From: a virus
Lineage: Duplodnaviria > Heunggongvirae > Uroviricota > Caudoviricetes
DNA length: 64,000 nt
IMG/VR virus record: IMGVR_UViG_2541047938_000006
Direction: 5' to 3' (one strand)
In this document: positions 58,613 to 59,068 of the stretch, piece by piece
Layout of the letters: every line of letters begins with the position of its first letter
How positions within the stretch are numbered: position 1 is the first letter of the stretch
The notes under the pieces: generated by a model
What the model was told of the DNA's origin: nothing
Database searches by the model: none
The model's input: the letters and a program-made list of their open reading frames with translations, nothing else
Translations under genes and position numbers: made by a program

Positions 58613-59068
58613 AAATTCACTCTCCTTACGGGGTTTGTAGTTGAGGAGTTCTCCACGGGTGAGGTGGAGATCGTGCGCCGGACACGGGTGAGTTCCTGCA
58701 CTCTCAGTTTACTGAACAGACATTACCCTGAAAGCCAGGGTACTACACGAAAGCGCGAGGCGAAGACTCTTTCCCATAGAAGGATTGTCGTTAGATTTCT
58801 TCGACCGTGCGCTTCCGGTTGTGAATAACAACATTGCTGTGTGTAACCCTTGGCGGATATCGGTTTGCCGATTGCTGATGTCCGCCCTTTTTAAAGTGAA
58901 TTTTGTGATGCGGTGAATGCGGCTATGCGCACGCGGAACAGTTAAACCGACAGGATGTCACGGAAAGTCATCGTCCCCTGACCCGGCGTTAGTTGTTAAC
59001 TGGTTAACGTCACCTGGAGGCACCAGGCACCGCATCAACAAAGTTCATTTGTGAAAATGGAGATAATT

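Follow-up and report, generated by a model that had tools for sequence, protein, structure and literature searches.

A pseudoknotted RNA cassette of the STnc100/PasD family between a KilS/DicF-like small RNA and kil in a lambdoid phage

The genes kilR and dicB are textbook toxic genes of Escherichia coli cryptic prophages. Stems processed by RNase III are familiar from rRNA precursors, the lambda N leader and T7 R1.1, two helical turns being the classic substrate length, and HK022 is a phage not known to carry N. Here we describe a structured RNA element, hereafter the early-left element, that lies upstream of kil in a 64,000-nucleotide (nt) stretch of viral DNA (Caudoviricetes; IMG/VR record IMGVR_UViG_2541047938_000006), the whole of which we call the window. 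Among the known RNAs closest to it, STnc100, EcOnc27 and PasD are Hfq small RNAs (10.64898/2026.05.13.724894; PMC8550237; PMC12711010), and the put element of HK022 is ~70 nt long, forms two stem-loops in a V shape and lies 0-270 nt after PL/PR (PMC9378689). The silencing of kilR and dicB by Rho/NusG and their release under stress have been intensively studied (PMC5793797; 10.1101/2023.04.14.536235).

The relevant parts of the window, which belongs to a lambdoid phage, are nearly identical to Escherichia phage PhiR5_2. On its 5' side, the early-left element is flanked by the terminator of a KilS/DicF-like small RNA, and on its 3' side by the ribosome-binding site of kil; pL lies ~1.8 kb upstream of it, with N and a terminator in between. 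Our results strongly support its membership of the STnc100/PasD family, of which it represents an unannotated architectural variant that lies inside an operon and has no terminator. E. coli K-12 has this cassette in two spacers that bear no annotation, kilS-kilR (Rac) and dicF-dicB (Qin), and a conserved pseudoknotted domain related by homology to the small RNAs STnc100 and PasD precedes both kilR and dicB. This provides a testable post-transcriptional control point for division inhibitors, and links early-left leaders and late-region small RNAs, two sets of prophage RNAs so far treated apart.

Fold and relatives of the cassette before kil

The initial annotation had proposed that an element of about 130 nt is shared between the early-left operon and repeats of the late region, each time in transcript orientation, and our analysis bears this out: a single RNA-level element is present in both places. 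The strings on which the proposal was built were found in place, GTGATGCGGTGAATGC at 58905-58920 and CACCTGGAGGCACCAGGCACCGCATC at 59011-59036 on the + strand, and CATCGCGTGGTGAATCC and ACCGGGAGGCACCTGGCACCATGCG on the - strand of the late units. Operon assignment and strand logic were also correct, with cI, N and kil all on the + strand and the late units on the - strand downstream of Q. Three occurrences of the composite motif GGTGAAT-N72-102-GGAGGCACC were found in the window, at 58912-59024 (+), 46182-46275 (-) and 45699-45807 (-), compared to none in 100 dinucleotide-preserving shuffles. At the level of primary sequence, the early-left copy is only ~40% identical to the late copies (61/149 and 57/147 columns). 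In the alignment, similarity extends well beyond GGAGGCACC and is mostly structural, with four modelled helices kept by compensatory changes; it is thus not confined to a short motif devoid of covarying structure, and a common fold is supported across 90 distinct phage copies.

The Rfam model for STnc100 (RF02076) has a gathering score of 47 bits, and the early-left copy falls below it: searched within 801 nt, it reached 31 bits (E = 8e-5). Scanning viral contigs for the pattern yielded 120 loci with 99 distinct cores, of which 57 representatives were used to build an alignment and a covariance model of our own. This model scored the early-left copy at 88.6 bits, late copy B at 91.4 bits and late copy A at 87.2 bits, values that arise partly by construction, as the model was trained on all three copies, the two late ones being represented by the identical locus of PhiR5_2. 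In 122 hits (90 distinct), 96.2% of the cells in the four modelled helices were paired, compared to 76.4% in column shuffles and 40-47% with slid partners, and compensatory changes were found in 19 of the 26 pairs among the 90 distinct copies. The early-left subfamily taken alone had 97.5% paired cells and compensatory changes in 17 of the 26 pairs; these compensatory pairs of its own indicate that the fold is under selection in this subfamily, and is not a relic.

Read from 5' to 3', the architecture consists of P1, AA(U), P2 (with a U-N-N-G-C loop and one bulge), P3, P4, an A, P5 (with an AGGCA loop) and the return to P1 (coordinates in Table 1). The P2 helix was 99.1% paired, and its pairs 20-38, 24-36 and 26-34 flip between C-G and G-C in the two subfamilies described below. 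P3, of three base pairs (bp), encloses the 5' strand of a pseudoknot, CAGUUAA (58939-58945), together with a variable insert that is the sole poorly conserved part among kil and dicB leaders; it was fully paired in 70 of the 90 distinct copies, by 8 or more pair combinations. All eight pairs of P4 had compensatory changes. P5 was 99.5% paired, with a third pair that is G-C in 65 of the distinct copies and U-A in another 21. The pseudoknot joins the P4 loop to a strand located 2-4 nt after P2/P3, with a mean of 7.0 contiguous pairs when each copy is read in its own sequence; at least six pairs formed in 91% of copies, compared to 27% of cross-paired controls, and ~40 distinct sequence pairs were represented. 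This pseudoknot locks the five-helix fold around one junction. A contact between the P2 and P5 loops, considered on the basis of a divergent copy, was rejected as not clean, the related divergent type keeping its P2 loop and altering P5 alone.

The core secondary structure of STnc100, comprising the closing stem, a C-rich/G-rich hairpin, a long hairpin and the GGAGGCACC hairpin, is present in the early-left copy, with covariation. Both the pseudoknot and P3 are absent from the displayed Rfam structure line. The Rfam STnc100 model covers only part of the family and of its structure. About 30 bases are near-invariant. Together with the use of the domain before unrelated downstream RNAs, the near-invariant junction and loop bases of the core suggest a shared host partner. 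Protein coding was rejected as an explanation for the conservation: a 45-amino-acid (aa) open reading frame (ORF) at 58917-59054 lacks a Shine-Dalgarno sequence, and the conservation follows a base-pair pattern. By reading, its counterpart in the dicB type has only 26 aa, and its ATG is absent from the small-RNA-type copies, which read AATCCCCC.

Two subfamilies can be told apart by P2, which is CCCCC/GGGG in the small-RNA type and GCGGC/GC-CGC in the early-left type. Many small-RNA-type members have a near-consensus promoter, TTGACA-17-TAAATT, with its -10 hexamer at 14 to 9 nt before GGUG; the sigma-70 promoters of the family are placed such that transcription would start at the first helix, and an intrinsic terminator follows 23-39 nt after the core. 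Early-left-type members lack a terminator and are located in repressor-proximal early operons, where the next feature, usually an ORF, lies 32-44 nt downstream. These ORFs encode DicB, KilR, TerB/TciA (P7, D6), a Rha/Ant-type regulator and small unknown proteins, and in one group the ORF is replaced by an RprA-like small RNA.

Several arrangements of the domain were observed in other phages and contigs. At an E. coli locus (L010, 3445-3644, -), and also at L012, L027, L081 and L187, a domain with a 9-bp P1, again in an early-left setting, is fused directly to an RprA-like seed, UUAUGCUGUGUGUAGUCUU, and a terminator, the order being domain then small RNA, the reverse of that in the window. In P1-like phages, the domain is found among the tRNA genes of the ban operon, which C1 controls, as in P7 (L003, 2492-2625). 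Phage D6 (L005) has three copies (877-990, 2492-2630 and 3672-3800), two of them divergent, with P5 stems GGUGG/CCACC and GGGGG/CCCCC and a retained AGGCA loop. Arrays also occur, as one viral contig contained four tandem small-RNA-type copies in ~1 kb (L022, 2318-3358, -). A scan of genome contigs with a 16-base gapped motif returned 120 rows, most of them chance matches, and only five, all Enterobacteriaceae, passed a stricter filter; due to this poor selectivity, the taxonomic range of the family is only roughly known.

In E. coli K-12, the kilS-kilR and dicF-dicB cassettes scored 28 and 34.4 bits with the Rfam model and 82.2 and 89.7 bits with our own. The three leaders, those two and the one in the window, are colinear from small-RNA terminator through cassette to start codon, with 80% mean identity over the block. 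The K-12 annotation holds kilS, dicF and ORFs only, and its 175-nt spacers are featureless. By blastn, 4640 (86%) of the 5426 complete genomes of E. coli contain the early-left type, with a median of two copies and up to nine, and no annotated feature was found underneath among the matches listed. The fold and this distribution, K-12 included, are solid. Copies 85% identical to the E. coli-type kil leader were also present in the records of an Actinobacillus phage (PP818812.1) and of Aeromonas phage AP1 (MT713136.1); such a leader is odd in these hosts, and the assemblies may be chimeric or contaminated.

The mosaic nature of lambdoid phages and the lack of a small-RNA promoter and terminator at the early-left copy would both be accounted for if a small-RNA gene had recombined into this region and survived there only as a functionless remnant. 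We find this scarcely credible, however, for a subfamily that is retained in 86% of complete E. coli genomes, has accumulated compensatory changes of its own (17/26 pairs) and has acquired a derived feature of its own, the long P1.

Late-region copies and the question of antitermination

The late region contains three small-RNA-type copies in tandem, in which the domain constitutes the 5' end of a small-RNA gene; P1 is short (6-9 bp), and the gene continues into a variable tail and ends in an intrinsic terminator. From the family pattern, we infer that each has its own promoter. Units A and B are already known STnc100 small-RNA genes, scoring far above the Rfam gathering score (Table 1). The view that no annotated gene explains the element was therefore right for the early-left copy, which is unannotated, and wrong for these late copies, which belong to RF02076. 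Copy C, located between them, is divergent, with 21.7 bits (E = 2.6e-4) in our model and a sub-threshold 30 bits (E = 5e-5) in Rfam STnc100. Its architecture is unchanged, but its loops are GNRA-type, GAAA in P5 and GGAA in P2 replacing AGGCA and UNNGC, and its P1 is GAUG/CAUC; it may represent the PasD-like branch of Zhu et al. 2026. We also asked whether the tails of the three late small RNAs might pair in trans, be it with the leader of kil, with the KilS-like RNA or with the ribosome-binding site of N, and found no support for this (z from -1.3 to +0.4).

Two further observations concern the surroundings of the late copies. Back-to-back terminators on opposite strands, at 45601-45620 (+) and 45642-45661 (-), lie just past copy B and suggest an insulated small-RNA block in the late operon. 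Between the Q gene and the first late copy, at ~46440-46520 (-), gcagcgcaccgatgggagctggttcgattccggccgccaca resembles the 3' half of a tRNA (T arm and acceptor strand).

The initial annotation also held that the element sits where nut/put/qut-like antitermination signals or processing signals act. The antitermination half of this claim is not supported: the early-left element is very probably not a transcription antiterminator, as the phage has N, nutL and Q, the element bears no likeness to HK022 put and other copies precede terminators. A lambda-type nut site was rejected because the element lacks a boxA and has the hairpin loops UAUGC and AGGCA, the true nutL being located at 57196-57232. 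A qut site was rejected as well, with the late copies 540-1200 bp past the end of the Q gene and with a conservation of RNA type, seen in compensatory pairs, as opposed to a DNA element overlapping pR'.

The most specific form of the idea is a put-like processive antiterminator, in which the nascent RNA would bind RNA polymerase, as put does at the zinc-binding domain of beta', and confer terminator resistance in cis in both operons. Transcript orientation in two long, terminator-containing operons is what such an activity would call for, as is the P7/D6 copy in the ban operon with its long untranslated stretches. Nonetheless, we regard it as extremely unlikely. N, nutL and Q are all present, and the early-left element follows the KilS terminator instead of preceding it. 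Other copies run into a terminator within 23-39 nt, and family members have been detected as discrete Hfq-bound small RNAs (PMC8550237, PMC12711010). At the late copies, upstream of lysis genes and behind constitutive-looking promoters, antitermination would presumably harm the lysogen. HK022 had no Rfam STnc100 match in 22000-40751, from the early-left to the late regions, and genome-wide it had neither the motif nor a match to our own model at E up to 10.

The long closing stem, its possible roles and neighboring features

The processing half of the same claim survives, as the early-left copy is closed by a covarying stem of 21-22 bp, the length of an RNase III substrate. In the window, P1 begins one base past the U-run of the KilS-like terminator and pairs 58894-58915 with 59028-59050 over 22 bp, interrupted by a single bulged A, and the start of kil follows 18 nt later. 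Similarly long stems close the dicB type (21 continuous pairs), the Citrobacter copy (L157; 21 pairs of different sequence) and L088 (22 pairs with a GCG/CGC swap), such that a helix of ~20 bp or more, as expected of an RNase III stem, is present in four covarying variants. P1 of the small-RNA type has a median of 8 bp and a maximum of 16 bp, with all but three copies at 10 bp or less. The region 58886-59075 has a minimum free energy (MFE) of -66.2 kcal/mol (z = -4.58), none of 200 shuffles was as stable, and the MFE fold includes the long P1; the K-12 dicB leader gave z = -4.40 against shuffles.

We propose, as a reading that we hold to be evenly poised between right and wrong, that the early-left element is an STnc100/PasD-family cassette whose long P1 is processed by RNase III, separating the small RNA from the kil mRNA. 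A role for RNase III before kil is plausible. In N-modified or read-through transcripts, RNase III would cut the putative processing site in P1, which would detach the upstream KilS-like small RNA and release the folded core. The kil mRNA would then begin 10-25 nt before its Shine-Dalgarno sequence, and this new 5' end would set the amount of Kil. By analogy with the lambda N leader, activation of Kil would be favored. In the MFE fold, only the outermost weak pairs reach the kil Shine-Dalgarno sequence, a feature not conserved in Citrobacter. Consistent with processing, published RNA sequencing lists 26 reads for a delta-rnc mutant at a site within the K-12 dicF-dicB cassette, position 1649470, where neither wild-type replicate has any (PMC5371410 Table S1).

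Several points weigh against processing by RNase III. The signal at 1649470 is low (26 reads) in a table rich in low-count entries, and the site is 'known' only via older DicF work (PMC5371410); the mapped RNase III cut of the dicBF transcript is upstream of DicF, outside the cassette. The window P1 has a bulged A, and P7/D6 copies before terB/tciA have only an 8-bp P1, which means that a long stem is not needed in every gene-proximal copy. RNase III would account for the long stem and would leave the near-invariant core junction and loops unaccounted for, and the long stem could merely guarantee folding within a long transcript.

That last point is central to a rather improbable alternative, in which the domain is a folding insulator or 5'-boundary module that works without RNase III, shielding the downstream small-RNA tail or kil mRNA from 5'-end-dependent entry and scanning by RNase E and from upstream interference; the long P1 would then only guarantee folding of a domain buried in a long transcript. 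Its constant position would fit, given that the domain is always 5' of very different RNAs, namely a seed with terminator, an RprA-like small RNA and five or more unrelated ORFs. So would the predicted start of small-RNA copies at the first base of P1, which leaves the 5' end fully paired, and the 8-bp P1 with which the gene-proximal P7/D6 copies work. On the other hand, a simple hairpin would suffice for this purpose, so that a five-helix pseudoknot with ~30 near-invariant bases goes unexplained, as does the fact that the P1 lengths of four covarying variants fall so closely together, at 21-22 bp.

The complexity of the core is instead the starting point for a sensor, which we consider quite unlikely: the core would bind a small molecule or a host or phage protein and thereby gate the toxic early-left genes kil, dicB, tciA and ant, while the late small-RNA copies would be decoys or carriers of the same sensor. 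Its pseudoknot, its multi-helix junction and the conservation of bases in junction and loops are aptamer-like, the placement is constant (32-44 nt before start codons in one subfamily, 23-39 nt before terminators in the other), and untimely expression of the downstream genes is harmful. However, no conserved alternative pairing with the Shine-Dalgarno sequence was found; in two types, only a weak outer helix reaches it, and in Citrobacter there is none that does. Pairing of the core with its own terminator arm had a mean of -12.2 kcal/mol, and with the arms of other copies -11.3 kcal/mol (mean rank 0.49), which means that core-terminator complementarity is no better for cognate arms than for others. 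The small-RNA copies have constitutive-looking promoters and behave as Hfq small RNAs (PMC8550237), and no ligand or protein candidate emerged.

A broader version joins the sensor to RNase III processing, and we treat it as a tentative idea that is probably incorrect: the core would be a free-standing protein- or ligand-binding RNA, delivered both as the head of an Hfq small RNA and as an early-left cassette excised by RNase III, gating KilR and DicB. If this were true, the core would match a riboswitch aptamer or a tRNA-like module in complexity, and most strains of E. coli, K-12 among them, would have their KilR and DicB gated by it.

A possible stacking of P1 on P5 raises one more possibility. 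The C4 RNA of P1/P7 is an RNase P substrate, and the early-left element might likewise be a tRNA-like element cut by RNase P at the 5' end of P1, with P1 and P5 stacked as acceptor and T arm and the P2-P5 loop contact as elbow. In small-RNA copies, P1 (7-8 bp) and P5 (5 bp) follow each other with no linker and would give a stack of 12-13 bp, and copies are found among tRNA genes in P7/D6 and next to the tRNA remnant in the window. We nevertheless judge it very unlikely, since no RCCA follows P1, a 22-bp P1 is ill-suited to an acceptor stem and the P2-P5 contact is a conjecture. ARAGORN predicted 0 tRNA genes in the window, and the Rfam tRNA model returned nothing at E up to 10 in 58600-59400.

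Returning to the surroundings of the cassette, whose long stem we propose as an RNase III site, several small ORFs lie on the + strand between the N-like gene and kil. A scan of 58600-59150 revealed neither a promoter-like site nor a + strand terminator-like site. The kil and dicB types have a weak TAAAGT hexamer 20 nt 5' of GGUG, and an older claim of a dicB-proximal promoter was unconfirmed by Ragunathan et al. The KilS/DicF-like small RNA (58780-58892, +) lies directly 5' of the element and aligns with K-12 kilS; the single-stranded stretch AUUGCUGUGUGUAAC in it is similar to the 3' region that is conserved in RprA, and its Rfam scores (DicF, 29.2 bits; RprA, 22.4 bits) are both sub-threshold. 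Farther away, 49950-50148 (-) has matches at Rfam gathering level to C4 antisense RNA, isrK and the c4-a1b1 target, just 5' of an antirepressor-like ORF (49222-49896), amounting to a P1/P7-type immI module within a lambdoid phage. Distant from the element, 2528-2616 (+) matches sRNA-Xcc1 at gathering level (69.1 bits).

Table 1. Positions of the cassette, its helices, the late-region copies and nearby features in the window.
Feature	Position	Strand	Remarks
Early-left element, structured RNA cassette including long P1	58894..59050	+	Own covariance model 58900-59043, 88.6 bits
P1 5' strand AAGUGAAUUUUGUGAUGCGGUG	58894..58915	+	Pairs with 59028-59050
P2 hairpin GCGGC-UAUGC-GC[A]CGC	58919..58934	+	U-N-N-G-C pentaloop, one-base bulge
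P3, GGA 58935-58937 with CCC 58982-58984	58935..58984	+	One mismatch in the window copy
P4 hairpin GGCGUUA / UAACGUC	58985..59011	+	Loop holds pseudoknot 3' strand UUAACUG (58997-59003)
P5 hairpin CCUGG-AGGCA-CCAGG	59013..59027	+	Near-invariant GG-AGGCA-CC motif
P1 3' strand	59028..59050	+	Ends 9 nt before kil Shine-Dalgarno
kil Shine-Dalgarno GGAG	59059-59062	+	
kil, KilR-type septation inhibitor, 73 aa	59069..59290	+	PHROG 294, E = 8e-36; annotated Kil in PhiR5_2
KilS/DicF-like small RNA, 3' part and intrinsic terminator	58838..58892	+	Rfam DicF 29.2 bits, sub-threshold
N-like gene, phage-21-type	57339-57647	+	PHROG 271, E = 3.9e-35
nutL, boxA GCTCTTTAACA and phage-21-type boxB	~57196-57232	+	Canonical by sequence reading; upstream of N
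cI-type repressor	55927-56634	+	
Q-like late antiterminator gene	46850..47476	-	PHROG 753, E = 3.5e-68; upstream of late copies
Late copy A, STnc100 small-RNA gene	46116..46309	-	Core 46163-46287, terminator 46125-46144; Rfam 138.7 bits, own model 87.2
Late copy C, divergent, between A and B	45905..46080	-	Core 45939-46059, terminator 45912-45931
Late copy B, STnc100 small-RNA gene	45631..45840	-	Core 45680-45819, terminator 45642-45661; Rfam 129.9 bits, own model 91.4

Comparison with known systems

Among the closest counterparts of the early-left element are the kilS-kilR and dicF-dicB leaders of K-12, which have the same succession of a small RNA with terminator, the cassette and a division-inhibitor gene, and differ from it in the variable insert and in some P4 pairs. 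STnc100 (EcOnc27/sRNA103) and PasD of pathogenic E. coli prophages share with it the core fold, the near-invariant GGUGAAU and ACC-GGAGGCACC-GGCACC and an occurrence in lambdoid and P1-like phages of Enterobacterales. Unlike them, the early-left copy has neither promoter nor terminator, is closed by a P1 of 22 bp instead of ~8 bp, has a G-C-swapped P2 and precedes a protein gene.

HK022 putL and putR resemble the element as structured RNAs encoded by a lambdoid phage, two of whose operons contain them in transcript orientation. In contrast to put, the early-left element is ~130-157 nt long, comprises five helices and a pseudoknot, lies 1.8 kb from pL and belongs to a phage that has N and Q. 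With RNase III processing stems it has in common a helix of about two turns formed by the flanks of a folded RNA, within a polycistronic phage transcript and near a ribosome-binding site. It differs from them in that the enclosed RNA is a conserved pseudoknotted domain, and not rRNA or a simple hairpin, and in that cleavage is here only inferred.

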